Origin: Escherichia coli
GTDB lineage: Bacteria; Pseudomonadota; Gammaproteobacteria; Enterobacterales; Enterobacteriaceae
Assembly: GCF_030013595.1 (NCBI RefSeq)
Contig: NZ_CP122768.1
Length of the DNA stretch: 64,000 bases
Strand: one strand, 5' to 3'
In this document: piece after piece, positions 14,611-44,869 of the stretch
Position numbering within the stretch: position 1 is the first letter of the stretch
Layout of the letters: each line of letters opens with the position of its first letter
Notes under the pieces: generated by a model
The model's database searches: none
The model's input: the letters and a program-made list of their open reading frames with translations, nothing else
Told to the model about the DNA's origin: nothing
Made by a program: the position numbers and the translations under genes

Positions 14611-14611
14611 T

Positions 14612-20784: not shown

Positions 20785-20799
20785 TCCAGAGGAACATTT

Positions 20800-21087
20800 A
20801 TGAAAATTACAGTGGTTTGCGGTAACGGCTTAGGCACCAGCCTGATGATGGAAATGAGCATTAAAAGCATTTTGAAGGATTTGTCCGTCAGCGCTGATGT
20901 TGATCACGTCGACCTGGGCTCCGCGAAAGGGACGCCGAGTGATATCTATGTCGGCACCAAAGACATTGCCGAGCAGTTAGCCGCGCAGTCTGTCGCAGGC
21001 AAAATCGTCGCACTGGAAAATATGATTGATAAGAAAGCCATGAGAGAACGTTTGTCCGTGGTATTAACCGAATTAGGCGCACTGTAA
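20800..21087 (+). CDS. PTS EIIB component (ascorbate/galactitol-type)
   Basis: 95-aa ORF with N-terminal phospho-Cys motif VVCGNGLGTS. Confidence 0.85.
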   Translation: MKITVVCGNGLGTSLMMEMSIKSILKDLSVSADVDHVDLGSAKGTPSDIYVGTKDIAEQLAAQSVAGKIVALENMIDKKAMRERLSVVLTELGAL

Positions 21088-21099
21088 GCTGGGGGCGAT

Positions 21100-22356
21100 A
21101 TGGATTTCTTTCGTTTTTTGATGAGCGATGTACTTTCCGAACCCGCAGTGCTGGTCGGTTTAATCGCCCTGATTGGCCTGATTGCACAGAAAAAACCGGT
21201 AACCGAATGCATTAAAGGTACCGTCAAGACCATTATGGGGTTTGTGATTTTAGGCGCAGGGGCGGGTTTAGTTGTGTCGTCACTGGGTGACTTCGCAAAC
21301 ATTTTCCAGCATGCCTTTGGTATTCAGGGTGTAGTGCCGAACAATGAAGCCATTGTTTCCGTAGCGCAGAAAAGCTTCGGGAAAGAAATGGCGATGATTA
21401 TGTTCTTTGCGATGGTTATCAACATTATGATTGCCCGTTTCACACCGTGGAAATTTATCTTCCTGACCGGTCATCACACGTTGTTTATGTCGATGATGGT
21501 AGCGGTAATTCTGGCAACAGCAGGCATGACCGGCATTACGCTTATAGCCGTTGGCTCTTTGGTTGTTGGCGTGGCAATGGTCTTTTTCCCGGCTATTGCG
21601 CATCCGTACATGAAGAAAGTGACCGGTTCTGATGACGTTGCCATCGGCCACTTCTCAACATTATCTTATGTATTGGCCGGTTTCATCGGCAGCAAGTTTG
21701 GTAATAAAGAGCACTCGACTGAAGACATGAATGTGCCGAAAAGTCTGCTGTTCTTGCGCGACACGCCGGTTGCTATCTCTTTTACCATGAGCATAATTTT
21801 CCTGGTGACGTGCCTGTTTGCGGGTGCAGATGCGGTGAAAGAGCTTAGCGGTGGTAAAAACTGGTTCATGTTCTCTATCATGCAATCCATTACCTTCGCA
21901 GCTGGCGTGTACATCATTCTGCAGGGTGTGCGCATGGTGATTGCGGAGATTGTCCCGGCATTCAAAGGTATTTCAGACAAGCTGGTTCCGAATGCCAGAC
22001 CTGCTCTCGATTGCCCGGTCGTCTTCCCTTACGCACCTAACGCTGTACTGGTTGGTTTCCTGAGTAGCTTTGCTGCAGGTTTAATCGGTATGTTCACGTT
22101 GTATCTGCTGAACATGATCGTGATTATTCCTGGTGTGGTGCCGCACTTCTTCGTAGGTGCAGCTGCAGGGGTATTCGGTAATGCAACGGGTGGACGTCGT
22201 GGTGCGATTTTGGGTGCCTTCGCTCAGGGCTTGCTTATTACCTTCCTGCCAGTATTCTTATTGCCGGTGCTGGGTGATATTGGTTTTGCTAACACCACCT
22301 TCAGTGATGCTGACTTTGGCGCACTGGGTATTTTGTTAGGGATTATCGTTCGCTAA
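21100..22356 (+). CDS. PTS EIIC permease (UlaA/SgaT family)
   Basis: 418-aa polytopic membrane ORF following IIA and IIB. Confidence 0.85.
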   Translation: MDFFRFLMSDVLSEPAVLVGLIALIGLIAQKKPVTECIKGTVKTIMGFVILGAGAGLVVSSLGDFANIFQHAFGIQGVVPNNEAIVSVAQKSFGKEMAMIMFFAMVINIMIARFTPWKFIFLTGHHTLFMSMMVAVILATAGMTGITLIAVGSLVVGVAMVFFPAIAHPYMKKVTGSDDVAIGHFSTLSYVLAGFIGSKFGNKEHSTEDMNVPKSLLFLRDTPVAISFTMSIIFLVTCLFAGADAVKELSGGKNWFMFSIMQSITFAAGVYIILQGVRMVIAEIVPAFKGISDKLVPNARPALDCPVVFPYAPNAVLVGFLSSFAAGLIGMFTLYLLNMIVIIPGVVPHFFVGAAAGVFGNATGGRRGAILGAFAQGLLITFLPVFLLPVLGDIGFANTTFSDADFGALGILLGIIVR

Positions 22357-22571: not shown

Positions 22572-22856
22572 TTACCTCGCGTAAAAAACGGGGTAAGGCC
22601 GCTCATCCAGCGTCATCTCCACAGGTAATAATTCAACGCCAATGCCAGAAGAGTTCGTTACCGGAAGACGCCGTGATATACGCCCTTTGATCAGCGAGAG
22701 CCTGAGCCATTTGAACAGAAGATTATCATTGATATCATGCTCCCGGGCAATACGGGCAACAGAACCCCTTGGTTGTAAAGCCAGTTTAACCATTTGAAGT
22801 TTAAACTCATTTGAAAATGACCTGCGGGGTTCAACTGATAATGTTTTTTGTTCCAT
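22572..22856 (-). mobile_element. IS3-family transposase OrfA-like remnant (degraded)
   Basis: 94-aa ORF with the helix-turn-helix region typical of IS3-family OrfA (FSNEFKLQMVKLA...SVARIAREHDINDNLLFKWLR); no intact second transposase ORF or terminal repeats seen. Confidence 0.5.
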
Positions 22857-23277: not shown

Positions 23278-24291
23278 TTATTCAATTCCTGTGGTGACTG
23301 TAAAAGTGCGCGTTTGCTGCGGTGCAACCTGAATCAGCGTGCCATTACGTTGCGCGGCAAGATACCCCTCAGGCCGACAGGTTGCAGGTAATGCAAAGGC
23401 GGCTACCTGTTGCTCTCCGTTATAAAGGATCCAGCGTGTCACATAATTTAGTTCAGCACTGTAGAAACGAGTAACAAACGTAGTGCCATCGGGAGAGATC
23501 ATGCGAAACTCTGGCTGATCTGTATAAGCGTCCAGTTTGTCTGCAAAGAAGACAATTTCTGGATCATAAAATTCCGGTTGACTCAGCGTCGACAGAGAGG
23601 CTTCTCCCTGCATAATCCGTTGATTAAACGCCAGCCACTGAGCGGTGGGATTAACATGCGAAGGCACTGATTCACGCAATCTTAATATTTCGTCCGGGAT
23701 ATTCTGGCTGAATGTAGCATTTGGTATATATGCATAATTCATGTGGCACATATATTGTAGTGGCATATCTACAGAAGCCAGATTGGTTACGGCCATCTTA
23801 ATATCGAACAGTGTAGAGGATTTGTGAAGGACCACTGTTGGCTGAGCCAGATAATGATGACCGAAACCCATTACATACTCGTAACGCCCGTTAAGGCGTA
23901 ACATATCTCCGTCTAATTCCAGCCATGCTTCATCCATCGCGGCACAGGCCATTTCACCGTGTAGCAGATGAGTATCTTCCACAGATGGGCAGCCATTAGC
24001 CAGCAAACCTGAATGAAAAGCAAAACAGCCATAGGTCTCTATCACCTCTGTCGCCGGTTTAGGCTGGCGAAACATATTGCACATGGTGAGGCCGTGTCCA
24101 TCAAATTGCGCATCCCAAATCATCTGCCCCATCCAGGGAAGAATAATCAAATGTCCACGACTGTTTGCAATTTTAAGCCCCTCGACACCGCTGTCATATC
24201 GAAAAGACGTGACAGTAAAATCACTATTTTCCAGCAAGATACGAGGTTTCTCGCCAAAAAGCGCCCGCCACAAATTAATACGCGTACTCAT
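23278..24291 (-). CDS. deoX: DeoX-like protein of the deoxyribose operon (function unknown, possibly mutarotase-like)
   Basis: 337-aa ORF downstream of the kinase and permease in the same orientation; assignment by operon synteny with Salmonella/pathogenic E. coli deoK-deoP-deoX as recalled. Confidence 0.55.
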   Translation of the reverse strand: MSTRINLWRALFGEKPRILLENSDFTVTSFRYDSGVEGLKIANSRGHLIILPWMGQMIWDAQFDGHGLTMCNMFRQPKPATEVIETYGCFAFHSGLLANGCPSVEDTHLLHGEMACAAMDEAWLELDGDMLRLNGRYEYVMGFGHHYLAQPTVVLHKSSTLFDIKMAVTNLASVDMPLQYMCHMNYAYIPNATFSQNIPDEILRLRESVPSHVNPTAQWLAFNQRIMQGEASLSTLSQPEFYDPEIVFFADKLDAYTDQPEFRMISPDGTTFVTRFYSAELNYVTRWILYNGEQQVAAFALPATCRPEGYLAAQRNGTLIQVAPQQTRTFTVTTGIE

Positions 24292-24302
24292 AACGATTCT
24301 CC

Positions 24303-25619
24303 TCAGGACGCTGTGACTTCAGCCAGTGCGGTACGTACTTTGCTTTCACGCCAGAAGTAGACTCCGACATAGACAAAGCAGAGCATAGAAACCAGGAATG
24401 AAAGCTGTAGTGAGTGGAACATATCTGCAATATATCCCTGAATTGCCGGAACCACCGCGGCACCGACAATAGCCATAACAATGACTGCTCCTGCCATTTC
24501 TGTATGTTCGTTATCAACTGTATCCAGTGTTCCTGCATAGATCGTCGCCCAGCAAGGGCCAAACAAAACACTTACCAGGACGGCGACATAGACCGCGCTG
24601 AAACTTGGAGCCAGTGCAACATATGCCAGGAACAGCGCCCCTATAACGGAATAGAGAATCAATACTTTTTCCGGATTAAAACGCGTCATAAGGATATTGG
24701 CTATAAACTTGCCAATAAAGAAGCAGGCAAAGCTATAGACCATGAAGTTTGAAGCATCACGTTCGTTGATATCGCCCAACTCCAGCGCCAGACGGATGGT
24801 AAATGACCATACTGCGACCTGCATACCCACATAAAGGAACTGCGCCACAATACCGCGACGAAAGCGCGGATTTCTAGCCAGATAGCGCAGCGTATCCATT
24901 GCTGACGGGCGTTTATGGTGACTTGTCTGTGCCACTTTACAGGTTGGGAAGCGGGTTAAAAGGAACAACACCATGACCACAACCAGAATCATAATCATAT
25001 ACTTATACGGTTCAAGGGTGTTCTCTAACATCAGCACCTTAAAGTTGTGAATTTGCTCGGCGTTCATTCCTGACATCTGCTTTTCAAGGCTTTCCCCCTC
25101 GGAGAAAACCAGATATTTGCCCAATAAAATACCAGACGCAGCACCAATCGGATAAAAGGTCTGGCTGATATTGAGCCGCAATGTGGCATAGGCTTTTGGA
25201 CCGATCATTGAACTGTATGTGTTCGCTGCAGTTTCAAGGAAACTCAGGCCAATCGCAATCGCAAAAATAGCTGCAAGGAACATAGTGTAGGTTGCCATAT
25301 GCGAGGCAGGGAAAAAAAGTGTACAACCACCAATATACAGCGTCAGGCCAATTAAAATTGCCACCTTATAACTGGTCTTTTTAATCACAAGGGATGCTGG
25401 TATTGCAATTAAAAAATAACCTCCATAAAATGCGCTCTGCACCAATGCTGAAGCAAAGTTACTTAGCGAAAATACACTTTTGAATTGAGTGATTAATATG
25501 TCATTTAATGCAGCTGCGCATCCCCATAGCGGGAATAAACACGATAACAAAATAAACTGGAACAAGGGAGTCTTATTCAGATACCCATCAGGCATCTGAA
25601 TGATGTTTTTATCGTTCAT
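24303..25619 (-). CDS. deoP: MFS sugar permease, FucP family (DeoP-like deoxyribose permease)
   Basis: 438-aa 12-helix MFS ORF; FucP-like N-terminus. Confidence 0.7.
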   Translation of the reverse strand: MNDKNIIQMPDGYLNKTPLFQFILLSCLFPLWGCAAALNDILITQFKSVFSLSNFASALVQSAFYGGYFLIAIPASLVIKKTSYKVAILIGLTLYIGGCTLFFPASHMATYTMFLAAIFAIAIGLSFLETAANTYSSMIGPKAYATLRLNISQTFYPIGAASGILLGKYLVFSEGESLEKQMSGMNAEQIHNFKVLMLENTLEPYKYMIMILVVVMVLFLLTRFPTCKVAQTSHHKRPSAMDTLRYLARNPRFRRGIVAQFLYVGMQVAVWSFTIRLALELGDINERDASNFMVYSFACFFIGKFIANILMTRFNPEKVLILYSVIGALFLAYVALAPSFSAVYVAVLVSVLFGPCWATIYAGTLDTVDNEHTEMAGAVIVMAIVGAAVVPAIQGYIADMFHSLQLSFLVSMLCFVYVGVYFWRESKVRTALAEVTAS

Positions 25620-25646
25620 AGTGCTACCTTTAACTGTGCAGGATGA

Positions 25647-26557
25647 TTATTCGTTTAAGGTTAAAAATTCATTAAATTGTTCAATACTCGGATAAGATGA
25701 TTGCGTACCTTTCCCTGTGACGCTGAAAGCGGCAAAGAGAGCGGCTTTTTTCAAAGCGGCTTCAACATCACCGCTTTGAACATAATAATGGGAAAAGCAA
25801 CCAATAAATGCGTCACCAGCGCCACTAGTATCAACAGCATTTACTTTGAATGCAGGAACATGGACTTCCTGATCGCGGGTCATCCATAATGCGCCTTTTT
25901 CGCTCATGGTAACAATAATATTGTTCAGCCCTTTATCAACTAACGAACGTGCGGCCAAACGAATATGATCATAAGTATCAACCGACATACCGGTTAATAT
26001 TTCCAGTTCTGTTTCATTCGGGATAAAGAAATCACATTTGCAGGCATAAGACATATCTAACTCACGCAATGCCGGAGCCGGATTTAATAACACTTCAATA
26101 CCATTTTTCTTACCAAACTCAATCGCGTGGTAAACTGTTTCCAGTTGAACTTCCAGTTGTAAAACGATCAATTTGCATTTTTTCAGATCTTCTGCAGCTC
26201 GATCGATATCTTCCGGGGAAAGAAATTTATTCGCTCCCTTAATTATTAATATACTATTGCTCGAGTTGGCATTAACAAAGATCGGTGCAACACCACTGCT
26301 GGTACAGGGGACTTTCTCAACATAAGTGGTATTAATTCCCCATGATTCGAGATTACGAATAGTATTATCCGCAAAAATATCATCACCTACTTTAGTCAGC
26401 ATCAGGACTTTTGAATTCAATTTAGCCGCCGCCACCGCTTGATTAGCACCTTTCCCACCACATCCGATTTTGAAGGCAGGTGCTTCCAGAGTTTCTCCTT
26501 CTTTAGGCATCTGATTAGTGTAAGTAATGAGATCCACCATATTGGAACCAATAACTG
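25647..26557 (-). pseudogene. deoK: Ribokinase-family sugar kinase (DeoK-like deoxyribokinase), 5' end removed by IS1
   Basis: PfkB/ribokinase motifs (GGKGANQAVAAA, DTSGAGDAF); reading frame runs upstream (VIGSNMVDL...) straight into the IS1 end at 26558 with no start codon or promoter. Confidence 0.7.
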
Positions 26558-26572
26558 GGTAATGACTCCAAC

Positions 26573-27076
26573 TTACTGATAGTGTTTTATGTTCAGATAA
26601 TGCCCGATGACCTTGTCATGCAGCTCCACCGATTTTGAGAACGACAGTGACTTCCGTCCCAGCCTTGCCAGATGTTGTCTCAGATTCAGGTTATGCCGCT
26701 CAATGCGCTGAGTATAACGCTTGCTGATAACGTGCAGCTTTCCCTTCAGGCGTGATTCATACAGCGGCCAGCCATCCGTCATCCATACCACGACCTCAAA
26801 GGCCGACAGCAGGCTCAGAAGACGCTCCAGTGTGGCCAGAGTGCGTTCACCGAAGACGTGCGCCACAACCGTCCTCCGCATCCTGTCATACGCGTAAAAC
26901 AGCCAGCGCTGACGTGATTTAGCACCGACGTAGCCCCACTGTTCGTCCATTTCAGCGCAGACAATCACATCACTGCCCGGTTGTATGCGCGAGGTTACCG
27001 ACTGCGGCCTGAGTTTTTTAAGTGGCGGAAAATCGTGTTGAGGCCAACGCCAATAATGCGTGCACTGGCGCGACAT
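26573..27076 (-). CDS. insB: IS1 transposase InsB reading frame
   Basis: 167-aa ORF matching IS1 InsB with a few substitutions relative to the K-12 copy as recalled. Confidence 0.9.
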
Positions 27077-27270
27077 CCGACGCCATTCATGGCCATATCA
27101 ATGATTTTCTGGTGCGTACCGGGCTGAGAGGCGGCGTAAGTGAACTGTAGTTGCCATGTTTTACGGCAGTGAGAGCAGAGATAGCGCTGATGTCCGGCGG
27201 TGCTTTTGCCGTTACGCACCACCCCGTCAGTAGCTGAACAGGAGGGACAGCTGATAGAAACAGAAGCCAC
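26995..27270 (-). CDS. insA: IS1 InsA
   Basis: 91-aa [19 protein letters not shown]...; start codon here is GTG. Confidence 0.9.
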
Positions 27271-27325
27271 TGGAGCACCTCAAAAACACCATCATACACT
27301 AAATCAGTAAGTTGGCAGCATCACC

Positions 27326-28027
27326 GACAATGCAGATGGTTCAACCATGCTGGATAAACGTTATGTCATCACTAACGGTAATCAGCTGGCGATTCAAAAT
27401 GATTTACTGGAGAGTTTATCAAAAGCGTTAAACCAACCGTGGCCACAACGAATGCAGGAGATGCTCCAGCAAATTTTGCCTCATCGTGGTGCGTTATTAA
27501 CTAATTTTTATCAGGCACATGATTATTTACTGCATGGCGATGATAAATCATTGAACCGTGCCAGTGAATTATTAGGTGAGATTGTTCAATCATCCCCAGA
27601 ATTTACCTACGCGAGAGCAGAAAAAGCATTAGTTGATATCGTGCGCCATTCTCAACATCCTTTAGATGAAAAACAATTAGCAGCACTGAACACAGACATA
27701 GATAACATTGTTACACTACCGGAATTGAATAACCTGTCCATTATATATCAAATAAAAGCGGTCAGTGCTCTGGTAAAAGGTAAAACAGATGAGTCTTACC
27801 AGGCGATAAATACTGGCATTGATCTTGAAATGTCCTGGCTAAATTATGTGTTGCTTGGCAAGGTTTATGAAATGAAGGGGATGAACCGGGAAGCAGCTGA
27901 TGCATATCTCACCGCCTTTAATTTACGCCCAGGGGCAAACACCCTTTACTGGATTGAAAATGGTATATTCCAGACTTCTGTTCCTTATGTTGTACCTTAT
28001 CTCGACAAATTTCTCGCTTCAGAATAA
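27326..28027 (+). pseudogene. cadC: cadC 3' fragment (C-terminal about 233 codons of the ToxR-like activator); 5' half replaced by IS1
   Basis: ORF ends about 365 bp upstream of cadB in the position and orientation of cadC; begins abruptly at the IS1 end. Confidence 0.8.
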
Positions 28028-28392
28028 GTAACTCCCGGGTTGATTTATGCTCGGCAAGATTTGTTGTTGAGTTTTTGTATGTTTCTGTTGGTATAATATG
28101 TTGCGGCAATTTATTTGCCGCATAATTTTTATTACATAAATTTAACCAGAAAATGTCCCACAATCCATTGTAAATATTGAATGTTTATCTTTTCATGATA
28201 TCAACTTGCGATCCTGATGTGTTAATAAAAAACCTCAAGTTCTCACTTACAGAAACTTTTGTGTTATTTCACCTAATCTTTAGGATTAATCCTTTTTTCG
28301 TGAGTATTCTTAGCGCCAGTTTGGTCTGGTCAGGAAATAGTTATACATCATGACCCGGACTCCAAATTCAAAAATGAAATTAGGAGAAGAGC
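28028..28392 (+). promoter_or_regulatory. cadBA promoter/regulatory region (Pcad)
   Basis: Conserved intergenic region between cadC and cadB; individual CadC sites not mapped. Confidence 0.5.
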
Positions 28393-29727
28393 ATGAGTTC
28401 TGCCAAGAAGATCGGGCTATTTGCCTGTACCGGTGTTGTTGCCGGTAATATGATGGGGAGCGGTATTGCATTATTACCTGCGAACCTAGCAAGTATCGGT
28501 GGTATTGCTATCTGGGGTTGGATTATCTCTATTATTGGTGCAATGTCGCTGGCGTATGTATATGCCCGACTGGCAACAAAAAACCCGCAACAAGGTGGCC
28601 CAATTGCTTATGCCGGAGAAATTTCCCCTGCATTTGGTTTTCAGACAGGTGTTCTTTATTACCATGCTAACTGGATTGGTAACCTGGCGATTGGTATTAC
28701 CGCTGTATCTTATCTTTCCACCTTCTTCCCAGTATTAAATGATCCTGTTCCGGCGGGTATCGCCTGTATTGCTATCGTCTGGGTATTTACCTTTGTAAAT
28801 ATGCTCGGCGGTACCTGGGTAAGCCGTTTAACCACTATTGGTCTGGTGCTGGTTCTTATTCCTGTGGTAATGACAGCTATTGTTGGCTGGCATTGGTTTG
28901 ATGCTGCGACTTATGCTGCTAACTGGAATACTGCGGATACCACCGATGGTCATGCGATCATTAAAAGTATTCTGCTCTGCCTGTGGGCCTTCGTGGGTGT
29001 TGAATCCGCAGCTGTAAGTACTGGTATGGTTAAAAACCCGAAACGTACCGTTCCGCTGGCAACCATGCTGGGTACTGGTTTAGCAGGTATTGTTTATATC
29101 GCTGCGACTCAGGTGCTTTCCGGTATGTATCCGTCTTCTGTAATGGCAGCTTCCGGTGCTCCGTTTGCAATCAGTGCTTCAACTATCCTCGGTAACTGGG
29201 CTGCGCCGCTGGTTTCTGCATTCACCGCCTTTGCGTGCCTGACCTCTCTGGGCTCCTGGATGATGTTGGTAGGCCAGGCAGGTGTACGTGCCGCTAACGA
29301 CGGTAACTTCCCGAAAGTTTATGGTGAAGTCGACAGCAACGGTATTCCGAAAAAAGGTCTGCTGCTGGCTGCAGTGAAAATGACTGCCCTGATGATCCTC
29401 ATCACTCTGATGAACTCTGCCGGTGGTAAAGCATCTGACCTGTTCGGTGAACTGACCGGTATCGCAGTACTGCTGACTATGCTGCCGTACTTCTACTCTT
29501 GCGTTGACCTGATTCGTTTTGAAGGCGTTAACATCCGCAACTTTGTCAGCCTGATCTGCTCTGTACTGGGTTGCGTGTTCTGCTTCATCGCGCTGATGGG
29601 CGCAAGCTCCTTCGAGCTGGCAGGTACCTTCATCGTCAGCCTGATTATCCTGATGTTCTACGCTCGCAAAATGCACGAGCGCCAGAGCCACTCAATGGAT
29701 AACCACACAGCGTCTAACGCACATTAA
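28393..29727 (+). CDS. cadB: Lysine:cadaverine antiporter
   Basis: 444-aa APC-family transporter upstream of cadA. Confidence 0.95.
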   Translation: MSSAKKIGLFACTGVVAGNMMGSGIALLPANLASIGGIAIWGWIISIIGAMSLAYVYARLATKNPQQGGPIAYAGEISPAFGFQTGVLYYHANWIGNLAIGITAVSYLSTFFPVLNDPVPAGIACIAIVWVFTFVNMLGGTWVSRLTTIGLVLVLIPVVMTAIVGWHWFDAATYAANWNTADTTDGHAIIKSILLCLWAFVGVESAAVSTGMVKNPKRTVPLATMLGTGLAGIVYIAATQVLSGMYPSSVMAASGAPFAISASTILGNWAAPLVSAFTAFACLTSLGSWMMLVGQAGVRAANDGNFPKVYGEVDSNGIPKKGLLLAAVKMTALMILITLMNSAGGKASDLFGELTGIAVLLTMLPYFYSCVDLIRFEGVNIRNFVSLICSVLGCVFCFIALMGASSFELAGTFIVSLIILMFYARKMHERQSHSMDNHTASNAH

Positions 29728-29806
29728 TTAAAAGTATTTTCCGAGGCTCCTCCTTTCATTTTGTCCCATGTGTTGGGAGGGGCCTTTTTTACCTGGAGAT
29801 ATGACT

Positions 29807-31954
29807 ATGAACGTTATTGCAATATTGAATCACATGGGGGTTTATTTTAAAGAAGAACCCATCCGTGAACTTCATCGCGCGCTTGAACGTCTGAACTTCC
29901 AGATTGTTTACCCGAACGACCGTGACGACTTATTAAAACTGATCGAAAACAATGCGCGTCTGTGCGGCGTTATTTTTGACTGGGATAAATATAATCTCGA
30001 GCTGTGCGAAGAAATTAGCAAAATGAACGAGAACCTGCCGTTGTACGCGTTCGCTAATACGTATTCCACTCTCGATGTAAGCCTGAATGACCTGCGTTTA
30101 CAGATTAGCTTCTTTGAATATGCGCTGGGTGCTGCTGAAGATATTGCTAACAAGATCAAGCAGACCACTGACGAATATATCAACACTATTCTGCCTCCGC
30201 TGACCAAAGCACTGTTTAAATATGTTCGTGAAGGTAAATATACTTTCTGTACTCCTGGTCACATGGGCGGTACTGCATTCCAGAAAAGCCCGGTAGGTAG
30301 CCTGTTCTATGATTTCTTTGGTCCGAACACCATGAAATCTGATATTTCCATTTCAGTATCTGAACTGGGTTCTCTGCTGGATCACAGTGGTCCACACAAA
30401 GAAGCAGAACAGTATATCGCTCGCGTCTTTAACGCAGACCGCAGCTACATGGTGACCAACGGTACTTCCACTGCGAACAAAATTGTTGGTATGTACTCTG
30501 CTCCAGCAGGCAGCACCATTCTGATTGACCGTAACTGCCACAAATCGCTGACCCACCTGATGATGATGAGCGATGTTACGCCAATCTATTTCCGCCCGAC
30601 CCGTAACGCTTACGGTATTCTTGGTGGTATCCCACAGAGTGAATTCCAGCACGCTACCATTGCTAAGCGCGTGAAAGAAACACCAAACGCAACCTGGCCG
30701 GTACATGCTGTAATTACTAACTCTACCTATGATGGTCTGCTGTACAACACCGACTTCATCAAGAAAACACTGGATGTGAAATCCATCCACTTTGACTCCG
30801 CGTGGGTGCCTTACACCAACTTCTCACCGATTTACGAAGGTAAATGCGGTATGAGCGGTGGCCGTGTAGAAGGGAAAGTGATTTACGAAACCCAGTCTAC
30901 TCACAAACTGCTGGCGGCGTTCTCTCAGGCTTCCATGATCCACGTTAAAGGTGACGTAAACGAAGAAACCTTTAACGAAGCCTACATGATGCACACCACC
31001 ACTTCTCCGCACTACGGTATCGTGGCGTCCACTGAAACCGCTGCGGCGATGATGAAAGGCAATGCAGGTAAGCGTCTGATCAACGGTTCCATTGAACGTG
31101 CGATCAAATTCCGTAAAGAGATCAAACGTCTGAGAACGGAATCTGATGGCTGGTTCTTTGATGTATGGCAGCCGGATCATATCGATACGACTGAATGCTG
31201 GCCGCTGCGTTCTGACAGCACCTGGCACGGCTTCAAAAACATCGATAACGAGCACATGTATCTTGACCCGATCAAAGTCACCCTGCTGACTCCGGGGATG
31301 GAAAAAGACGGCACCATGAGCGACTTTGGTATTCCGGCCAGCATCGTGGCGAAATACCTCGACGAACATGGCATCGTTGTTGAGAAAACCGGTCCGTATA
31401 ACCTGCTGTTCCTGTTCAGCATCGGTATCGATAAGACCAAAGCACTGAGCCTGCTGCGTGCTCTGACAGACTTCAAACGTGCGTTCGATCTGAACCTGCG
31501 TGTGAAAAACATGCTGCCGTCTCTGTATCGTGAAGATCCTGAATTCTATGAAAACATGCGTATTCAGGAACTGGCTCAGAATATCCACAAACTGATTGTT
31601 CACCACAATCTGCCGGATCTGATGTATCGCGCATTTGAAGTTCTGCCGACCATGGTAATGACTCCGTATGCTGCGTTCCAGAAAGAGCTGCACGGTATGA
31701 CCGAAGAAGTTTACCTCGACGAAATGGTAGGTCGTATTAACGCCAATATGATCCTTCCGTATCCGCCGGGAGTTCCTCTGGTAATGCCGGGTGAAATGAT
31801 CACCGAAGAAAGCCGTCCGGTTCTGGAGTTCCTGCAGATGCTGTGTGAAATCGGCGCTCACTATCCGGGCTTTGAAACCGATATTCACGGTGCATACCGT
31901 CAGGCTGATGGCCGCTATACCGTTAAGGTATTGAAAGAAGAAAGCAAAAAATAA
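29807..31954 (+). CDS. cadA: Inducible lysine decarboxylase
   Basis: 715 aa from MNVIAILNHMGVYF...; full-length agreement with E. coli CadA as recalled. ORF track start at 29768 is an upstream in-frame extension. Confidence 0.95.
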   Translation: MNVIAILNHMGVYFKEEPIRELHRALERLNFQIVYPNDRDDLLKLIENNARLCGVIFDWDKYNLELCEEISKMNENLPLYAFANTYSTLDVSLNDLRLQISFFEYALGAAEDIANKIKQTTDEYINTILPPLTKALFKYVREGKYTFCTPGHMGGTAFQKSPVGSLFYDFFGPNTMKSDISISVSELGSLLDHSGPHKEAEQYIARVFNADRSYMVTNGTSTANKIVGMYSAPAGSTILIDRNCHKSLTHLMMMSDVTPIYFRPTRNAYGILGGIPQSEFQHATIAKRVKETPNATWPVHAVITNSTYDGLLYNTDFIKKTLDVKSIHFDSAWVPYTNFSPIYEGKCGMSGGRVEGKVIYETQSTHKLLAAFSQASMIHVKGDVNEETFNEAYMMHTTTSPHYGIVASTETAAAMMKGNAGKRLINGSIERAIKFRKEIKRLRTESDGWFFDVWQPDHIDTTECWPLRSDSTWHGFKNIDNEHMYLDPIKVTLLTPGMEKDGTMSDFGIPASIVAKYLDEHGIVVEKTGPYNLLFLFSIGIDKTKALSLLRALTDFKRAFDLNLRVKNMLPSLYREDPEFYENMRIQELAQNIHKLIVHHNLPDLMYRAFEVLPTMVMTPYAAFQKELHGMTEEVYLDEMVGRINANMILPYPPGVPLVMPGEMITEESRPVLEFLQMLCEIGAHYPGFETDIHGAYRQADGRYTVKVLKEESKK

Positions 31955-31967
31955 TTAGCTCGTACAA

Positions 31968-31996
31968 GGGAAGTGGCTTGCCACTTCCCTTTTTTG
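31968..31996 (+). terminator. Rho-independent terminator after cadA
   Basis: gggaagtgg-cttg-ccacttccc hairpin followed by TTTTTTG. Confidence 0.8.
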
Positions 31997-32012
31997 CTCA
32001 TAAGGAGAACAC

Positions 32013-33470
32013 ATGAAAACACCCTCACAGCCGCGCGCGATATACTATATCGTGGCGATCCAAATCTGGGAGTACTTCAGTTTTTACGGCATGCGTGCCT
32101 TACTCATTCTCTATCTCACCCATCAGCTTGGTTTTGATGATAACCATGCCATCAGCCTGTTCAGCGCATATGCTTCTCTGGTTTACGTTACCCCTATTCT
32201 CGGCGGCTGGCTTGCCGACCGCCTGCTCGGCAACCGCACTGCAGTGATTGCCGGCGCGCTGTTAATGACCCTTGGCCATGTGGTGCTGGGCATTGATACA
32301 AATTCAACCTTTAGCCTGTATCTGGCGCTGGCAATCATTATTTGTGGCTACGGTTTATTCAAATCAAACATCAGCTGTTTGCTTGGCGAGCTCTACGACG
32401 AGAACGATCATCGACGTGATGGCGGTTTTTCGCTGCTGTATGCTGCAGGCAATATCGGTTCTATCGCCGCCCCCATCGCCTGCGGCCTGGCTGCTCAGTG
32501 GTATGGATGGCATGTTGGCTTTGCCCTTGCGGGTGGCGGCATGTTTATCGGTTTGTTGATTTTCTTAAGCGGTCATCGTCATTTCCAGTCCACGCGTAGT
32601 ATGGATAAGAAAGCGCTCACTAGCGTCAAATTTGCCTTACCAGTATGGAGCTGGTTAGTGGTGATGCTCTGTTTAGCCCCAGTATTTTTTACCCTGCTGC
32701 TGGAGAACGACTGGTCCGGATATTTGCTGGCGATCGTTTGCCTCATTGCAGCACAAATCATTGCCCGCATGATGATCAAATTCCCCGAACACCGCCGTGC
32801 TCTTTGGCAAATTGTATTGTTGATGTTTGTCGGGACGTTGTTCTGGGTACTGGCACAACAGGGCGGCAGTACCATCAGCTTGTTTATCGATCGCTTTGTG
32901 AATCGTCAGGCATTCAATATTGAAGTACCTACAGCACTATTCCAGTCGGTGAATGCCATTGCGGTGATGCTCGCTGGGGTTGTTCTGGCCTGGCTGGCGT
33001 CGCCAGAAAGCCGCGGCAATTCAGCATTGCGCGTCTGGCTGAAGTTTGCCTTTGGCTTACTGCTGATGGCTTGTGGCTTTATGTTGCTGGCATTTGATGC
33101 CCGACATGCAGCGGCTGGCGGTCAAGCGTCAATGGGCGTGATGGTATCCGGGCTGGCGCTAATGGGCTTTGCTGAACTCTTTATTGACCCGGTGGCGATT
33201 GCGCAAATCACGCGTCTGAAAATGTCTGGCGTATTAACCGGTATTTATATGCTGGCAACAGGCGCGGTCGCCAACTGGCTGGCAGGCGTCGTGGCACAGC
33301 AGACGACAGAGTCGCAAATTAGCGGTATGGCAATTGCCGCTTACCAGCGATTCTTTTCTCAGATGGGAGAGTGGACGTTGGCTTGTGTCGCGATCATCGT
33401 GGTATTGGCCTTTGCTACCCGTTTTCTGTTTAGCACGCCGACGAATATGATACAGGAGAGCAACGATTAA
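32013..33470 (+). CDS. dtpC: Dipeptide/tripeptide:H+ permease (POT family)
   Basis: 485-aa POT-family ORF in the conserved position between cadA and lysU. Confidence 0.9.
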
Positions 33471-33706
33471 CTGTCGTAAAAACAATTGGTTATGAATAAA
33501 TTAACTTTCAGTTTATCACACTAGCAAATCGAGATTAATAAGTCATTTAAACCATTTTTATGGTTATTTATTAGTGATATCAACTTGAGGTAAGCGTTAG
33601 TTTCGATAAGATAAACTGAGTTATTAATAGTCGAGGCAGATAATACAGTGTACCGATCTGTCTCTTTATCTACGCTAAATTGAAAGCTGGATTTAGAGGA
33701 ACCAAA

Positions 33707-35224
33707 ATGTCTGAACGAGAAACACGGGGAGCCAATGAGGCTATTGATTTTAACGATGAACTGAGAAATCGCCGCGAAAAACTGGCGGCACTACGTCAGC
33801 AAGGTGTGGCGTTTCCCAATGATTTTCGCCGCGACCATACCTCTGACCAGTTGCACGAAGAGTTTGATGCGAAGGATAACCAGGAACTGGAATCCTTAAA
33901 CATTGAAGTCTCGGTTGCTGGCCGAATGATGACCCGTCGTATCATGGGGAAAGCCTCCTTTGTAACGTTGCAGGATGTCGGTGGCCGTATTCAACTGTAC
34001 GTTGCAAGAGATAGCCTGCCAGAAGGTGTTTATAACGATCAGTTTAAAAAATGGGATCTGGGTGACATTATCGGTGCCCGCGGTACGCTGTTTAAGACGC
34101 AAACGGGTGAGCTTTCCATTCACTGTACTGAGCTGCGCCTGCTGACTAAAGCACTACGTCCTTTACCAGATAAATTCCATGGTCTGCAGGATCAGGAAGT
34201 CCGTTATCGTCAACGTTATCTGGACCTCATCGCTAACGATAAATCCCGTCAAACGTTTGTTGTCCGTTCAAAAATTCTGGCCGCTATCCGTCAGTTCATG
34301 GTCGCGCGCGGCTTTATGGAAGTAGAAACCCCGATGATGCAGGTAATTCCAGGTGGGGCATCTGCTCGCCCGTTTATTACCCATCATAACGCTCTGGATT
34401 TAGATATGTACCTGCGTATCGCGCCAGAGCTGTATCTGAAACGTCTGGTTGTAGGCGGTTTTGAACGGGTATTCGAAATCAACCGTAACTTCCGTAATGA
34501 AGGTATTTCTGTTCGCCATAATCCTGAGTTCACAATGATGGAACTCTACATGGCGTATGCGGATTACCACGATTTGATTGAACTGACAGAGTCACTGTTC
34601 CGCACCCTGGCACAAGAGGTTCTGGGTACCACTAAAGTCACTTATGGCGAGCATGTGTTTGATTTCGGCAAACCGTTTGAAAAACTCACCATGCGCGAAG
34701 CAATCAAAAAATATCGTCCAGAAACCGATATGGCCGACCTGGATAATTTTGATGCCGCTAAAGCATTAGCTGAATCTATTGGTATTACGGTAGAGAAAAG
34801 CTGGGGGCTGGGACGTATTGTCACGGAGATCTTTGATGAAGTGGCAGAAGCACATCTGATTCAGCCAACCTTTATTACGGAATATCCCGCAGAAGTGTCA
34901 CCGCTGGCGCGCCGTAATGATGTTAACCCGGAAATCACCGACCGATTTGAATTCTTCATCGGTGGTCGTGAAATCGGTAATGGTTTTAGCGAATTAAACG
35001 ACGCAGAAGATCAGGCTGAACGTTTCCAGGAACAGGTTAACGCTAAAGCTGCAGGTGACGACGAAGCCATGTTCTATGACGAAGATTACGTGACTGCGCT
35101 GGAATATGGTTTGCCACCAACCGCTGGTCTGGGTATTGGTATCGACCGAATGATTATGCTGTTTACAAACAGTCATACTATTCGCGACGTTATTCTCTTC
35201 CCGGCGATGCGCCCACAGAAATAA
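33707..35224 (+). CDS. lysU: Lysyl-tRNA synthetase, inducible isoform
   Basis: 505 aa from MSERETRG...; class II aaRS motifs; identification as lysU (not lysS) by genomic context. Confidence 0.92.
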
Positions 35225-35235
35225 TTTTCACTTTA

Positions 35236-35269
35236 ATGAACGAAGCAGTCAGGCGACTGCTTCGTTCAT
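35236..35269 (+). terminator. Hairpin after lysU
   Basis: atgaacgaagcagtc-aggc-gactgcttcgttcat inverted repeat. Confidence 0.55.
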
Positions 35270-35343
35270 CATTCCGCAAATCCAGTTTTGAGGAGAGACG
35301 CTTCGTTTCACGATAACCAGCGGGTCCACTCAACTACAGCTCC

Positions 35344-35516
35344 TAAAAGAGAGAAAAAAGTAATGCCACAGGCAGACTCATTGGCCAGGTTATTCCTACC
35401 AGGAATGCACTAAGTAAACGAATATGTGTTTTCTCATGTGAGATAAACCAGATAATGACAAAGGATATGTTCACACCAATCACATAAAAAATTAATATTT
35501 TAGAGAATAGTGCCAT
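35344..35516 (-). pseudogene. ghoT: ghoT (type V toxin) with apparent 1-bp deletion causing frameshift after codon 18
   Basis: ATG at 35516 gives MALFSKILIFYVIGVNIS then shifts; the +1 frame continues VIIWFISHEKTHIRLLSAFLVGITWPMSLPVALLFSLF-stop, which restores the recalled 57-aa GhoT. Deletion is in an A-run near 35459-35461. Confidence 0.6.
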
Positions 35517-35543
35517 TTTTTATGTTCTTCTTATCCTTCCTGG

Positions 35544-35840
35544 CTACTTGTAAAACTGACGGAAATAGTCATCAACGGTCATAATGTTGAGGTCAAAGTC
35601 AATATCCGGTAAGTCTAAGCATTTAAGCCTGATTAAATCTTCGATTTCACTTGCGGCTAACGATGTCGTTATTGCGAAGGAGTTTTCATTCAATTGTCGT
35701 GGTATCCCATATTCATCAGCCACGATAGAGGAGAAATTCATATCATACATCAATGATCTTAACCTTAAGAACACTGAGGAATAAGATGATGGATAATCAA
35801 AAGAAACAACATAAGTATTGAACTTGTTTTTACCTTCCAT
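35544..35840 (-). CDS. ghoS: GhoS antitoxin (endoribonuclease) of the GhoT/GhoS type V toxin-antitoxin system
   Basis: 98-aa ORF upstream of ghoT in the same orientation. Confidence 0.85.
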   Translation of the reverse strand: MEGKNKFNTYVVSFDYPSSYSSVFLRLRSLMYDMNFSSIVADEYGIPRQLNENSFAITTSLAASEIEDLIRLKCLDLPDIDFDLNIMTVDDYFRQFYK

Positions 35841-36066
35841 AATATGACTCCTATCAATATTGAACGCTCTGGGGACGCAAAACTTATTAACCCCGATTGA
35901 TGATTCTCATATAGGAGATATTCTTTTTTTTGCTCAGTAAAGGGGATGACTTGGGACAAAAAAACGCGCTCTCTGCCCATTCTTTGTGCATCCCCCTACC
36001 CTTCAGATGCTCACCTGCATCACACCGCGGAGAGCATGAAAAATATTGTGACTCTGTACTCTCCCA

Positions 36067-36339
36067 TCAACTGCGAATATCATCATACTCCCGCGTTTTA
36101 TCAAATTCGTGTTTCGCAAATGGGCATAGTGGGATAATTTTTCGTTTTTCCCGACGCATTTTTTCCACGACTTTCGCAACCAGCTGTTTACCAATCCCCT
36201 GCCCTTTCAGGCTTTCATCGACATCGGTATGTTCGATAATCGCTAAATTCTCTCCGGTCGGCACAAAGACAATTTCAGCGATTTGCTTGCCCTGTTCGTC
36301 ATTAATGTAAAATTTATTGTGGCCTTCGCGTATTTCCAT
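36067..36339 (-). CDS. yjdJ: GNAT-family acetyltransferase-like small protein
   Basis: 90-aa ORF in conserved position next to yjdI. Confidence 0.8.
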
Positions 36340-36350
36340 TTTACCCTCGC

Positions 36351-36581
36351 TTATTTATGACGGTATTTCAGCGCGCCGCTCGGGCACGTATCAATCACTT
36401 TAACCACAGTGGCAACGTCGACTTCATCCGGCATGATCCACGGCTTTCGTTTGAGATTAAATAACTTGCCGTTGCCACGTACGCAATTGCCAGAATGCTG
36501 ACATATCGCAGTATTGAAATAGACATCGATCTTTTCGCCGGTATAACAGCGATAACCCCCGTCCAGTAGCGCCCGATCCAT
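36351..36581 (-). CDS. yjdI: Small conserved protein YjdI
   Basis: 76-aa Cys-containing ORF in conserved position, divergent from dcuS. Confidence 0.75.
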
Positions 36582-36761
36582 GACCTTCCCTCTCTCATCA
36601 GTATGATTATCGCTATAAGCATAGCCCCGGAATCTTCATACAGCACTGGCAGTTTCCGTTGCCAGAATCTCTTCCCCTATATAGCCAATCATTCTTACTC
36701 CCTTTGAATTACCCGCCTCATCAGAGATAATGCTTAAGAAATTTGTCACACAAGGAAGCTG

Positions 36762-38393
36762 ATGAGACATTCATTGCCCTACCGTATGTTACGCAAACGT
36801 CCGATGAAATTGAGTACCACTGTGATCTTAATGGTCAGCGCGGTACTGTTCTCGGTGCTATTGGTGGTGCATCTGATTTACTTCTCGCAAATCAGTGATA
36901 TGACGCGAGACGGGCTAGCCAACAAGGCGCTGGCAGTGGCGCGTACCCTCGCCGACTCGCCGGAAATCCGTCAGGGCTTGCAGAAAAAACCTCAGGAGAG
37001 CGGCATCCAGGCCATCGCGGAAGCCGTGCGCAAACGCAACGATCTGCTATTTATTGTCGTTACCGATATGCAAAGTCTTCGCTACTCGCATCCTGAAGCC
37101 CAGCGTATTGGTCAGCCATTTAAAGGTGATGACATCCTTAAAGCGCTGAATGGCGAAGAAAATGTCGCTATCAATCGCGGTTTTCTGGCGCAGGCTTTAC
37201 GCGTATTTACCCCCATCTACGATGAAAATCATAAACAAATTGGCGTGGTGGCGATCGGCCTTGAGTTAAGTCGCGTGACCCAACAGATCAATGACAGTCG
37301 CTGGAGCATTATCTGGTCGGTATTATTTGGCATGCTGGTCGGACTGATCGGCACCTGCATTCTGGTTAACGTACTGAAAAAAATCCTTTTTGGCCTGGAA
37401 CCCTACGAAATCTCCACGCTGTTTGAGCAGCGCCAGGCCATGTTGCAGTCTATCAAAGAAGGCGTCGTTGCCGTGGACGATCGCGGTGAAGTCACGCTGA
37501 TCAACGATGCCGCACAAGAATTGCTGAATTACCGTAAGTCGCAGGACGATGAGAAACTGTCGACGCTAAGCCACTCGTGGTCACAGGTGGTAGATGTCTC
37601 GGAAGTGTTACGCGACGGTACCCCGCGGCGCGACGAAGAGATTACGATTAAAGACCGGCTATTACTGATCAACACCGTTCCGGTGCGCAGTAATGGCGTT
37701 ATCATCGGTGCCATTTCAACCTTCAGGGACAAAACTGAAGTACGTAAACTGATGCAGCGACTCGATGGTCTGGTCAACTATGCTGACGCACTTCGTGAAC
37801 GATCCCACGAATTTATGAATAAATTGCACGTGATTCTCGGATTATTGCATCTGAAGAGTTATAAGCAGTTGGAAGATTACATTCTCAAAACAGCCAATAA
37901 CTATCAGGAAGAGATTGGCTCTCTGCTGGGTAAGATCAAATCTCCGGTTATCGCTGGTTTTTTAATCAGCAAGATTAACCGCGCGACCGATTTAGGCCAT
38001 ACGCTGATTTTAAACAGTGAAAGCCAGCTGCCAGACAGCGGCAGTGAAGACCAGGTCGCGACGCTGATTACCACGTTGGGAAATCTGATAGAAAACGCGC
38101 TGGAAGCATTAGGGCCGGAACCCGGAGGCGAAATTAGCGTAACATTGCACTACCGTCACGGCTGGCTGCACTGTGAAGTTAATGATGATGGACCGGGGAT
38201 CGCACCCGATAAAATCGATCACATTTTTGACAAAGGTGTCTCGACAAAAGGAAGCGAGCGAGGCGTCGGTTTAGCACTTGTCAAACAACAGGTAGAAAAT
38301 CTCGGCGGCAGCATCGCCGTGGAATCGGAACCCGGGATTTTCACACAATTTTTTGTCCAGATACCCTGGGACGGGGAGAGGTCGAACAGATGA
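36762..38393 (+). CDS. dcuS: C4-dicarboxylate sensor histidine kinase
   Basis: 543-aa ORF with two TM helices, periplasmic sensing domain, PAS and HATPase domains. Confidence 0.95.
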   Translation: MRHSLPYRMLRKRPMKLSTTVILMVSAVLFSVLLVVHLIYFSQISDMTRDGLANKALAVARTLADSPEIRQGLQKKPQESGIQAIAEAVRKRNDLLFIVVTDMQSLRYSHPEAQRIGQPFKGDDILKALNGEENVAINRGFLAQALRVFTPIYDENHKQIGVVAIGLELSRVTQQINDSRWSIIWSVLFGMLVGLIGTCILVNVLKKILFGLEPYEISTLFEQRQAMLQSIKEGVVAVDDRGEVTLINDAAQELLNYRKSQDDEKLSTLSHSWSQVVDVSEVLRDGTPRRDEEITIKDRLLLINTVPVRSNGVIIGAISTFRDKTEVRKLMQRLDGLVNYADALRERSHEFMNKLHVILGLLHLKSYKQLEDYILKTANNYQEEIGSLLGKIKSPVIAGFLISKINRATDLGHTLILNSESQLPDSGSEDQVATLITTLGNLIENALEALGPEPGGEISVTLHYRHGWLHCEVNDDGPGIAPDKIDHIFDKGVSTKGSERGVGLALVKQQVENLGGSIAVESEPGIFTQFFVQIPWDGERSNR

Positions 38394-39109
38394 TCAATGT
38401 ATTAATTATCGATGACGACGCAATGGTCGCGGAGCTGAATCGCCGATACGTAGCACAAATCCCAAGCTTTCAATGCTGTGGAACAGCCTCGACGCTGGAG
38501 AAAGCCAAAGAGATTATCTTCAATAGCGATACGCCTATCGACCTGATATTGCTCGATATCTATATGCAAAAAGAGAACGGGCTCGATTTACTGCCTGTCC
38601 TGCATAACGCGCGTTGCAAAAGTGATGTGATTGTCATCTCCTCCGCAGCCGATGCGGCAACCATTAAAGATTCGCTGCATTACGGTGTCGTGGATTACCT
38701 GATCAAACCCTTCCAGGCTTCCCGCTTTGAAGAGGCGCTCACCGGCTGGCGGCAAAAGAAAATGGCGCTGGAAAAACATCAGTATTATGACCAGGCCGAG
38801 CTTGATCAGCTAATCCACGGCAGCAGCTCCAACGAGCAGGATCCTCGTCGCTTGCCAAAAGGCTTAACGCCGCAGACGTTACGCACGCTGTGCCAGTGGA
38901 TTGACGCGCATCAGGACTATGAGTTTTCAACCGACGAGCTGGCTAACGAGGTTAACATTTCGCGTGTTTCCTGCCGTAAATACCTCATCTGGCTGGTCAA
39001 CTGCCACATCTTGTTCACCAGTATCCATTATGGCGTCACGGGGCGTCCGGTTTACCGTTACCGTATTCAGGCAGAACACTACTCACTGCTGAAACAATAT
39101 TGCCAATAA
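38390..39109 (+). CDS. dcuR: C4-dicarboxylate response regulator
   Basis: 239-aa response regulator; ATGA overlap with dcuS. Confidence 0.95.
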   Translation: MINVLIIDDDAMVAELNRRYVAQIPSFQCCGTASTLEKAKEIIFNSDTPIDLILLDIYMQKENGLDLLPVLHNARCKSDVIVISSAADAATIKDSLHYGVVDYLIKPFQASRFEEALTGWRQKKMALEKHQYYDQAELDQLIHGSSSNEQDPRRLPKGLTPQTLRTLCQWIDAHQDYEFSTDELANEVNISRVSCRKYLIWLVNCHILFTSIHYGVTGRPVYRYRIQAEHYSLLKQYCQ

Positions 39110-44083: not shown

Positions 44084-44092
44084 GACGTTGTG
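44084..44092. repeat. Target-site duplication (gacgttgtg), left copy
   Basis: Identical 9 bp directly flank both ends of IS1 copy 2. Confidence 0.9.
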
Positions 44093-44107
44093 GGTAATGA
44101 CTCCAAC

Positions 44108-44805: not shown

Positions 44806-44860
44806 TGGAGCACCTCAAAAACACCATCATACACTAAATCAGTAAGTTGGCAGCATCACC

Positions 44861-44869
44861 GACGTTGTG
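44861..44869. repeat. Target-site duplication (gacgttgtg), right copy
   Basis: See left copy. Confidence 0.9.

Follow-up and report, generated by a model that had tools for sequence, protein, structure and literature searches.

Analysis of a 64-kb chromosomal window of Escherichia coli (the whole stretch of DNA that was examined) revealed a cadC gene cut down to its 3′ part, next to complete cadB and cadA genes and a nearly intact Pcad. In all likelihood, ~23 kb including the first 279 codons of cadC were lost through a deletion driven by the insertion sequence IS1. The cadBA operon is probably silent despite its intact genes, and a lysine-decarboxylase-negative (LDC-negative) phenotype is the expected outcome of the cadC loss, to judge by strains of this genotype in the literature.

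The lesion contains a complete IS1 element of 768 bp (26558-27325, minus strand) with terminal inverted repeats and both reading frames, insA (26995-27270, 91 aa) and insB (26573-27076, 167 aa), likewise on the minus strand. Its ends (GGTAATGACTCC... and ...GGCAGCATCACC) are typical of IS1. The element occupies the place of ~23.3 kb: relative to E. coli O103:H2 FWSEC0007 both flanks are collinear, the intervening 23,315 bp (L004, 458-23772) are missing and one IS1 copy stands at the join. On the left, IS1 abuts a ribokinase-family gene of the pheU island (25647-26557, minus strand), deoK-like and annotated rbsK, which lacks its promoter and its first 10 nt (ATGGACATTG); the cut is visible in the sequence ...ATGGACATTG|CAGTTATTGG. 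Up to 26557 this gene is identical to rbsK of FWSEC0007 over 457/457 nt; it matches the NCBIfam ribokinase model TIGR02152 with 356 bits, and the members of its cluster are named deoxyribokinase. On the right, the cadC remnant begins at 27326, the base immediately after IS1. In FWSEC0007 the missing stretch holds the 5′ end of rbsK, a DeoR regulator, a CP4-like remnant with Ag43 and CbtA/YeeU, an integrase fragment and cadC codons 1-279, so that loss of the 5′ part of cadC was accompanied by that of about 22 kb of unrelated DNA from the island. No trace of the deleted segment was found anywhere in the 64-kb window.

A simple insertion of IS1 into cadC was ruled out. The bases flanking the element, CAATAACTG and GACAATGCA, form no 8-9-bp target-site duplication, and the 5′ half of cadC is absent. 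We interpret the lesion as a deletion. IS1 would have generated it either by an IS1-mediated adjacent deletion or by recombination between two IS1 copies, with one endpoint shortly after the start of the deoK-like ribokinase gene and the other at cadC codon 279. The initial annotation of this locus mentioned neither the element nor the ~23-kb deletion as the cause of the lesion.

The join could instead reflect an assembly artefact, in which two IS1 copies, one at the start of deoK and the other at cadC codon 280, were merged into one and the intervening 23 kb were dropped. Such a collapse likewise would produce no target duplication. Independent public assemblies contain both junctions, rbsK-IS1 being present in L013 and L015 and IS1-cadC280 in L005-L009, which represent at least 29 samples, but the public short-read contigs end inside IS1 and therefore confirm each junction separately rather than as the two sides of one IS1 copy. 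We nevertheless regard an artefact as very improbable. The window holds a second IS1 (44093-44860, minus strand) within melB, with the same sequence and orientation as the first, and here the assembly crosses the element with a proper 9-bp duplication (GACGTTGTG) of the kind left by a simple insertion, which argues that IS1 was resolved elsewhere. Moreover, the complementary junction product, cadC(1-282)-IS1, has no exact-match record, a weak argument since the index depends on contig ends. Even if two copies had been collapsed, cadC would be interrupted at the identical base.

Of CadC, a C-terminal portion of the periplasmic sensor domain is all that survives. The remnant (27326-28027, plus strand) comprises 702 nt, that is 233 codons and a stop, and corresponds to codons 280-512; the initial annotation, which put it at about 233 C-terminal codons, was exact to the base. 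Its translation aligned as had been proposed with CadC residues 280-512, showing 2 substitutions relative to FWSEC0007, and its DNA is 100% identical to that of the pig strain HCP5S3_I2. The further claim that the DNA-binding domain and transmembrane helix had been lost also agrees with domain searches: starting at residue 280, the remnant lacks the Trans_reg_C winged-helix domain (Pfam, residues 24-100), the linker and the membrane helix. Pfam detected the tail of CadC_C1 alone (model positions 90-134); this first periplasmic subdomain normally spans residues 191-324, and two thirds of it are lost. The remnant corresponds to residues 140-372 of the 372-residue chain in PDB 3LY7, with the first 92 residues of the sensor domain (188-512) gone, and it scores 325 bits against the NCBIfam CadC profile (positions 285-515 of 516), where the cut-off is 400. 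Neither of two features of a functional CadC is thus retained, namely the winged-helix domain and a single membrane helix with a complete sensor. The first in-frame ATG lies at 27347, and a TAA at 27308, inside the IS1 end, closes the frame upstream, ruling out an IS1-CadC fusion protein. No cadC 5′ sequence was found elsewhere in the 64-kb window. Together with these coding regions the deletion would have taken away the cadC promoter, and the remaining piece would neither insert into the membrane nor bind the Cad1/Cad2 sites.

The genes downstream are undamaged. As first described, cadB (28393-29727, plus strand), encoding the lysine/cadaverine antiporter of 444 aa, and cadA (29807-31954, plus strand), encoding the inducible lysine decarboxylase of 715 aa, are full length and free of stops. 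Their translations match WP_000092909.1 and WP_001295383.1, respectively, at every residue and score far above their NCBIfam cut-offs (cadB, NF007754, 920 versus 585 bits; cadA, NF011929, 1628 versus 1056 bits); at the amino-acid level both proteins are common E. coli alleles. The neighbouring dtpC and lysU are also intact. Pcad, which the initial annotation called preserved, is so with one qualification. The cadC-cadB spacer (28028-28392, plus strand) has the same length, 365 bp, as in strains with an intact cadC, and from 28176 to the cadB ATG it is identical to them (alignment with K-12, FWSEC0007, HCP5S3_I2 and EH2252), but a lineage-private C>T at 28175, the sole spacer difference from the closest relative, falls inside the CadC-binding core of Cad1 (41-mer at 28168-28208; sequence from PMC5430869). 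Read-through from IS1 into cadBA is disfavoured, as insAB point away from cadC, no promoter-like site on the plus strand was detected in a scan between IS1 and cadB, and two terminator-like hairpins (28049-28072 and 28102-28122) follow the cadC stop upstream of Pcad.

Pcad requires CadC for activation at low pH with lysine, and the intact cadBA operon should consequently remain silent; the strain would then test LDC-negative and excrete no cadaverine. We base this prediction on published strains of the same genotype, which make no cadaverine. The enteroinvasive E. coli (EIEC) strains HN280, 4608 and 53638, with cadBA intact and cadC defective, produce none and are LDC-negative, and cadC supplied in trans reverses this; a K-12 ΔcadC mutant likewise makes no cadaverine until cadC is given in trans (PMC4156367; reviewed in PMC5723341). 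Conversely, a second cadC, a cad locus on a plasmid or transcription that does not depend on CadC might keep cadBA expressed and the strain LDC-positive, a scenario we consider highly unlikely. It would be compatible with the absence of decay in cadB and cadA, and a few genomes do carry two copies of the cad locus or plasmid copies (three plasmid copies among 5426 genomes). However, cadBA does not differ at all from that of the closest relative, which points to a recent event rather than to maintained function, and second cadC copies occur in about 10 of the 5252 complete cadC-carrying E. coli genomes (~0.2%). The lack of a promoter-like site and the two hairpins described above also speak against it, as does the K-12 ΔcadC mutant, which makes no cadaverine although ldcC is present (PMC4156367). 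A silent operon has practical consequences, since tools that score the presence of cadA alone would label the strain LDC-positive, and in biochemical schemes an LDC-negative E. coli could pass for Shigella, as with Shiga-toxin-producing E. coli (STEC) O117:K1:H7.

Of 5426 complete E. coli genomes searched, 5252 carry the cadC 5′ half, 5235 the 3′ half and 5210 cadA, counts that give no sign that a genotype lacking the cadC 5′ part is common. Among these genomes, 43 have IS1 beside the cadC 3′ half and 27 have it in melB; the former arrangement is sporadic, its sources being pigs, ducks, wildlife, sediment and humans. The deoK-IS1 junction was found in no complete RefSeq E. coli genome searched. 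On the cad side, the closest relatives are pig faecal isolates (13 SNPs in 30.7 kb), and on the island side pig O141:H4 and enterotoxigenic (ETEC) strains match the locus; judged by its flanks, the locus is nearest to pig commensal and pig pathogenic or ETEC-like E. coli. The two junctions of IS1, with cadC codon 280 and with deoK, together provide a genotypic marker of an E. coli clone that is probably LDC-negative.

We also considered selection as the origin of the lesion. The initial annotation raised the possibility of a pathoadaptive change, in which losing cadaverine would have favoured fixation of the lesion, as in Shigella and EIEC, where cadaverine counteracts virulence. A dead cadC with intact cadBA is exactly the LDC-negative route preferred by EIEC, STEC O117:K1:H7 is a further LDC-negative diarrhoeagenic lineage with a cadC lesion, and the presence of the lesion in no fewer than 29 sequenced samples indicates that the clone has spread or was repeatedly sampled. 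Against this, the 64-kb window contains no invasion or Shigella marker, the nearest relatives come from pigs, and IS1 beside the cadC 3′ half is scattered over many hosts and environments and about as frequent as IS1 in melB. The same event also took away ~22 kb of unrelated DNA and destroyed the deoK operon, for which a contribution to competitiveness is reported. Nothing in the window supports selection of the lesion for virulence, and we judge that origin unlikely. Of the interpretation originally placed on the locus, the proposed mechanism appears sound, given the domain loss, the closed frame and the EIEC and K-12 ΔcadC precedents (PMC4156367), while the Shigella/EIEC-type selection is not supported.

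Selection unrelated to virulence deserves somewhat more weight, though it too is doubtful. Loss of CadC may avoid the cost of CadA or alkalinisation when cells grow in rich medium or under mildly acidic conditions, or remove CadC interference with arginine decarboxylase, whose system is intact in the window (adiA, adiY and adiC, 48677-53518). Evolution at low pH and TraDIS experiments selected for cadC inactivation, insertion sequences being among the causes, and a ΔcadA strain was fitter; growth in acid or rich medium alone can select for cadC loss (PMC12956098). This reading, however, extrapolates from K-12 laboratory experiments, and by the crude counts IS1 is not clearly more frequent at cadC than at melB. 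The evidence here favours neither a selected lesion nor a by-product of IS1 activity.

A more speculative proposal, to which we assign a low probability, is that the lesion marks an expanding non-EIEC clone with positively selected loss of CadC, in which erosion of the cad locus has only begun. If so, cadBA would be seen while still perfect and already placed between two identical, directly repeated IS1 copies, which bracket the segment from cadC′-cadBA-dtpC-lysU to melB′. A single recombination between them would remove the whole 17.5-kb cadC′-cadBA-...-melB′ segment and create a Shigella-like 'black hole'.

Among known systems, the locus most resembles the LDC-negative EIEC type represented by HN280, 4608 and 53638, as far as that type is described in the accounts of Casalino et al. 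(2003) given in PMC4156367 and PMC5723341. In both, the regulator gene alone is destroyed, cadB, cadA and Pcad are kept collinear with E. coli K-12, here with both structural frames intact and the private C>T in Cad1, and an insertion sequence acted as mutagen, IS1 in cadC being reported for EIEC 6.81. The lesion here is not a simple insertion but a ~23-kb IS1 deletion joining cadC codon 280 to the pheU-island ribokinase gene. The EIEC hosts are enteroinvasive; the 64-kb chromosomal window analysed here shows no invasion marker, and its nearest relatives are pig commensal and ETEC-like E. coli. Simple cadC insertions in EC556 (pig) and EH2252 (human) involve the same element in the same orientation, that of EC556 being 100% identical in sequence and that of EH2252 lying 12 bp from the breakpoint described here; those insertions keep both cadC halves and 9-bp duplications, whereas the present locus has lost the 5′ half together with adjoining island DNA.

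The Shigella 'black hole' and cad-locus erosion comprise deletions in S. flexneri and S. boydii, an IS insertion in S. sonnei and a cadA frameshift in S. dysenteriae (PMC3739510). They share with this locus IS-driven rearrangement by the pheU/cad region and, as predicted here, cadaverine loss. In contrast to Shigella, where cadA is deleted or inactivated, both cadA and cadB are intact, the deletion extends away from cadBA into the island, and dtpC and lysU are spared. STEC O117:K1:H7 is similarly a non-EIEC lineage with cadA present and cadC damaged, and it is LDC-negative; its lesion consists of a large aerobactin-bearing fragment in cadC with 90 bp of the cadC 5′ end deleted (PMC3739510), rather than of an IS1-mediated deletion. 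The allele described here is new, and the kind of lesion is familiar in E. coli and Shigella; it opens no new question and adds one more independent case in which cadC, not cadBA, is the gene struck.

Immediately to the right of a complete IS1 element, a plus-strand open frame (27326-28027; 233 codons and a stop in a six-frame ORF list of the raw sequence) is what remains of cadC. Aligned with the gene annotation of E. coli O103:H2 strain FWSEC0007, its translation corresponds to CadC residues 280-512 with two substitutions, and the truncation to about 233 C-terminal codons proposed in the initial annotation was thus correct in both coordinates and counts. In full-length CadC, Pfam assigns residues 24-100 to Trans_reg_C and 191-324 to CadC_C1; the remnant retains only CadC_C1 model positions 90-134. 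It scores 325 bits against an NCBIfam cut-off of 400 for CadC (profile positions 285-515 of 516), and its solved-structure match spans residues 140-372 of the 372-residue 3LY7 chain, a periplasmic domain construct. The DNA-binding domain and membrane helix, as first proposed, along with the linker and the first 92 sensor residues, have therefore all been lost.

The IS1 (26558-27325; 768 bp, ends GGTAATGACTCC... and ...GGCAGCATCACC) carries insA and insB on the minus strand. Its left flank is not cadC but a ribokinase-family gene. Simple insertion into cadC was rejected because the 9-bp flanks, CAATAACTG and GACAATGCA, show no target duplication and because the cadC 5' half, like every other part of the missing segment, is absent elsewhere in the 64-kb window. 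By BLAST, 26101-26557 matches positions 1-457 of the FWSEC0007 reference segment and 27326-44092 matches positions 23773-40540, so that 23,315 bp of reference DNA have been replaced by IS1, among them cadC codons 1-279 and the ribokinase gene's first 10 nt (ATGGACATTG/CAGTT...). The allele is a deletion of ~23 kb joining the ribokinase gene of the pheU island to cadC codon 280, and it bears the signature of IS1 activity, either an adjacent deletion mediated by the element or recombination between two copies of it. We did not find this allele described in the literature searched; it is present in public assemblies.

While the ribokinase-IS1 junction occurs in none of the complete RefSeq E. coli genomes, both junctions were found in independent public assemblies. 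In two contigs (GCA_036246605.1 and GCA_049544575.1) the ribokinase gene enters IS1 at exactly the same base as in the window, and in others (L005-L009, which include GCA_008326365.1 and many Logan runs) IS1 is followed by cadC from codon 280 onwards, with 100% identity in each; L005-L009 together represent at least 29 samples. Short-read contigs end within IS1, such that each junction is supported separately and not as one IS1 joining both flanks. It is nevertheless very improbable that a collapsed repeat in the assembly created the join, and even in that case cadC is interrupted at the same base.

The deoK-type ribokinase gene at the left breakpoint (25647-26557, minus strand) is followed by a fucP-like permease gene and an aldose-epimerase-family gene, a trio that sits in a tRNA-Phe (pheU) genomic island in many E. 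coli. The island runs pheU, integrase, fec genes, aryl-polyene (ape) cluster, LacI and PTS genes, ribokinase operon, DeoR regulator, a CP4-like remnant with Ag43 and CbtA/YeeU, an integrase fragment and cadC. Its remainder is kept at 1-22356, with fecE (43-810), remnants of a hemagglutinin and ShlB-family two-partner secretion pair (1348-2662), the ape lipid cluster (3178-18199), a LacI-family regulator (19039-20070) and an ascorbate-type PTS (20341-22356). No tRNA gene lies in the window, pheU being beyond its left end. Between the PTS and epimerase genes is a 94-aa IS3-family transposase orfA remnant (22572-22856, minus strand), which is old since reference islands carry it at the same spot. 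The ~23-kb deletion also took the start codon, the promoter and the adjacent DeoR regulator of the deoK-type operon (deoxyribose use; 23278-26557, minus strand); the remaining kinase ORF begins at M10, without the N-terminal GS-N motif region. Transcription of insAB points towards this operon, which could thus be expressed, if at all, only by read-through.

In agreement with the initial annotation, the structural genes are full length. cadB (28393-29727, plus strand; 444 aa, lysine/cadaverine antiporter) and cadA (29807-31954, plus strand; 715 aa) encode proteins with no amino-acid difference from WP_000092909.1 and WP_001295383.1, respectively, well over the curated NCBIfam cut-offs, and their 16 and 13 nucleotide differences from FWSEC0007 are all synonymous. 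An upstream ATG (29768) is taken as the cadA start in the ORF list; the protein itself has 715 aa. An IS1-cadC fusion protein was rejected, as a TAA at 27308 in the IS1 end closes the remnant frame upstream, and no ribosome-binding site is evident before its first in-frame ATG (27347). Transcription of insAB runs away from cadC, and a consensus scan of the stretch between IS1 and cadB gave no promoter-like site on the plus strand and two terminator-like hairpins directly after the cadC stop.

The cadBA promoter, described initially as preserved, is nearly so. The 365-bp spacer is full length and identical to that of intact-cadC strains from 28176 to the cadB ATG, but position 28175, inside the quasi-palindromic core of the CadC-binding site Cad1, carries a C>T change relative to the pig faecal isolate HCP5S3_I2, the closest relative on the cad side (Cad1 41-mer: TTGTAAACATTAAATG... 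in K-12, TTGTAAATATTGAATG... in the window). Private to this lineage, the change is of no consequence while CadC is absent; it may have arisen by chance or because constraint was relaxed once CadC was lost.

Published strains with defective cadC and an intact cadBA operon (K-12 ΔcadC ULS655 and the enteroinvasive E. coli (EIEC) strains HN280, 4608 and 53638) make no cadaverine and are negative for lysine decarboxylase (LDC), and a cadC plasmid brings cadaverine back to 15-22 nmol per 10^8 cells in such strains (PMC4156367; review PMC5723341). Because these strains share its genotype, the strain studied here is very likely LDC-negative with cadBA silent; precedent supports this proposed mechanism. 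The main uncertainty is the genome outside the window, and two cadC copies occur in only ~10 of 5252 complete E. coli genomes. Three plasmid records among complete E. coli genomes carry cadC and cadA, and the cad locus is thus occasionally mobilised.

Downstream of cadA lie, in standard E. coli order, dtpC, lysU, ghoST, dcuSR, dcuB, fumB, yjdF and melB, followed by melA, melR, adiA, adiY, adiC, eptA, basRS and proP. A second IS1 (44093-44860), identical to the first at all 768 positions and in the same orientation, splits melB (about 43635-45856, minus strand) with a clean 9-bp duplication, GACGTTGTG. The melB 3' fragment is also one base short of the closest relative (at 43744), and melibiose transport is therefore probably defective. 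Some public contigs with the cadC lesion pass the melB site uninterrupted and extend 34.8 kb past it, making the melB insertion the younger event. The directly repeated copies bracket a 16.8-kb segment (cadC', cadBA, dtpC, lysU, ghoST, dcuSR, dcuB, fumB, yjdF, melB') that in principle resembles a composite IS1 transposon; a single homologous crossover between them would delete the entire cad operon. adiA (48677-50947) is intact here and frameshifted in HCP5S3_I2 by an 8-bp deletion (49155-49162 in the window), so that of two very close relatives one is impaired in the lysine and the other in the arginine decarboxylase system of acid resistance.

The suggestion that the lesion was selected as a pathoadaptation of the Shigella/EIEC type found no support in the window, and this adaptive interpretation is unsupported. 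On the cad side, 13 SNPs (28175 C>T among them) and 2 indels in 30.7 kb separate the window from HCP5S3_I2, a strain in which cadC is intact and pheU carries no island; pig O141:H4, ETEC and O103:H2 strains share 99.9-100% identity with the island side. IS1 adjoins the cadC 3' half sporadically, in 43 of 5426 complete E. coli genomes from pigs, ducks, chickens, wildebeest, echidna, gull, sediment, sewage and humans among other sources, against 27 in a similar melB query, a crude control that reveals no striking excess at cadC. Furthermore, the same deletion removes Ag43 and destroys the deoK-type operon, and deoK operons borne on pathogenicity islands are reported to improve competitiveness (PMC7545054). 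We thus regard pathoadaptation as improbable, and assign about an even chance to persistence as a neutral by-product, with part of the weight left unassigned. Selection unrelated to virulence is an unlikely but somewhat better candidate than pathoadaptation: low-pH laboratory evolution selects cadC inactivation, insertion sequences included, and ΔcadA is fitter under those conditions (PMC12956098), so that selection, if any, need not concern virulence. cadB and cadA do not differ at all from their counterparts in the closest relative, which makes the lesion so recent that gene decay carries no information. Whole-locus loss is not rare (of the 5426 genomes, 216 lack cadA, 191 the cadC 3' half and 174 the cadC 5' half) and the window's genotype is not enriched; the cad locus is missing altogether from about 3-4% of complete E. 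coli genomes.

Among known cases, the lesion would work like the EIEC route to LDC negativity, which disables the regulator and leaves the structural genes untouched, and it has its mutagen, IS1, in common with EIEC 6.81 and many sporadic cadC::IS1 alleles. In the human strain EH2252 (NZ_AP027176.1), an independent IS1 (4001-4768 of the segment compared) lies in cadC only 12 bp downstream of the window's cadC breakpoint; it is oriented alike and flanked by a separate duplication, GGTTCAACC. Such proximity may point to a local preference of IS1 for targets in this AT-rich part of cadC. In STEC O117:K1:H7, cadC is split by an aerobactin-bearing fragment (PMC3739510) rather than by an IS1 deletion, and in the Shigella 'black holes' cadA itself, intact here, is deleted or broken.
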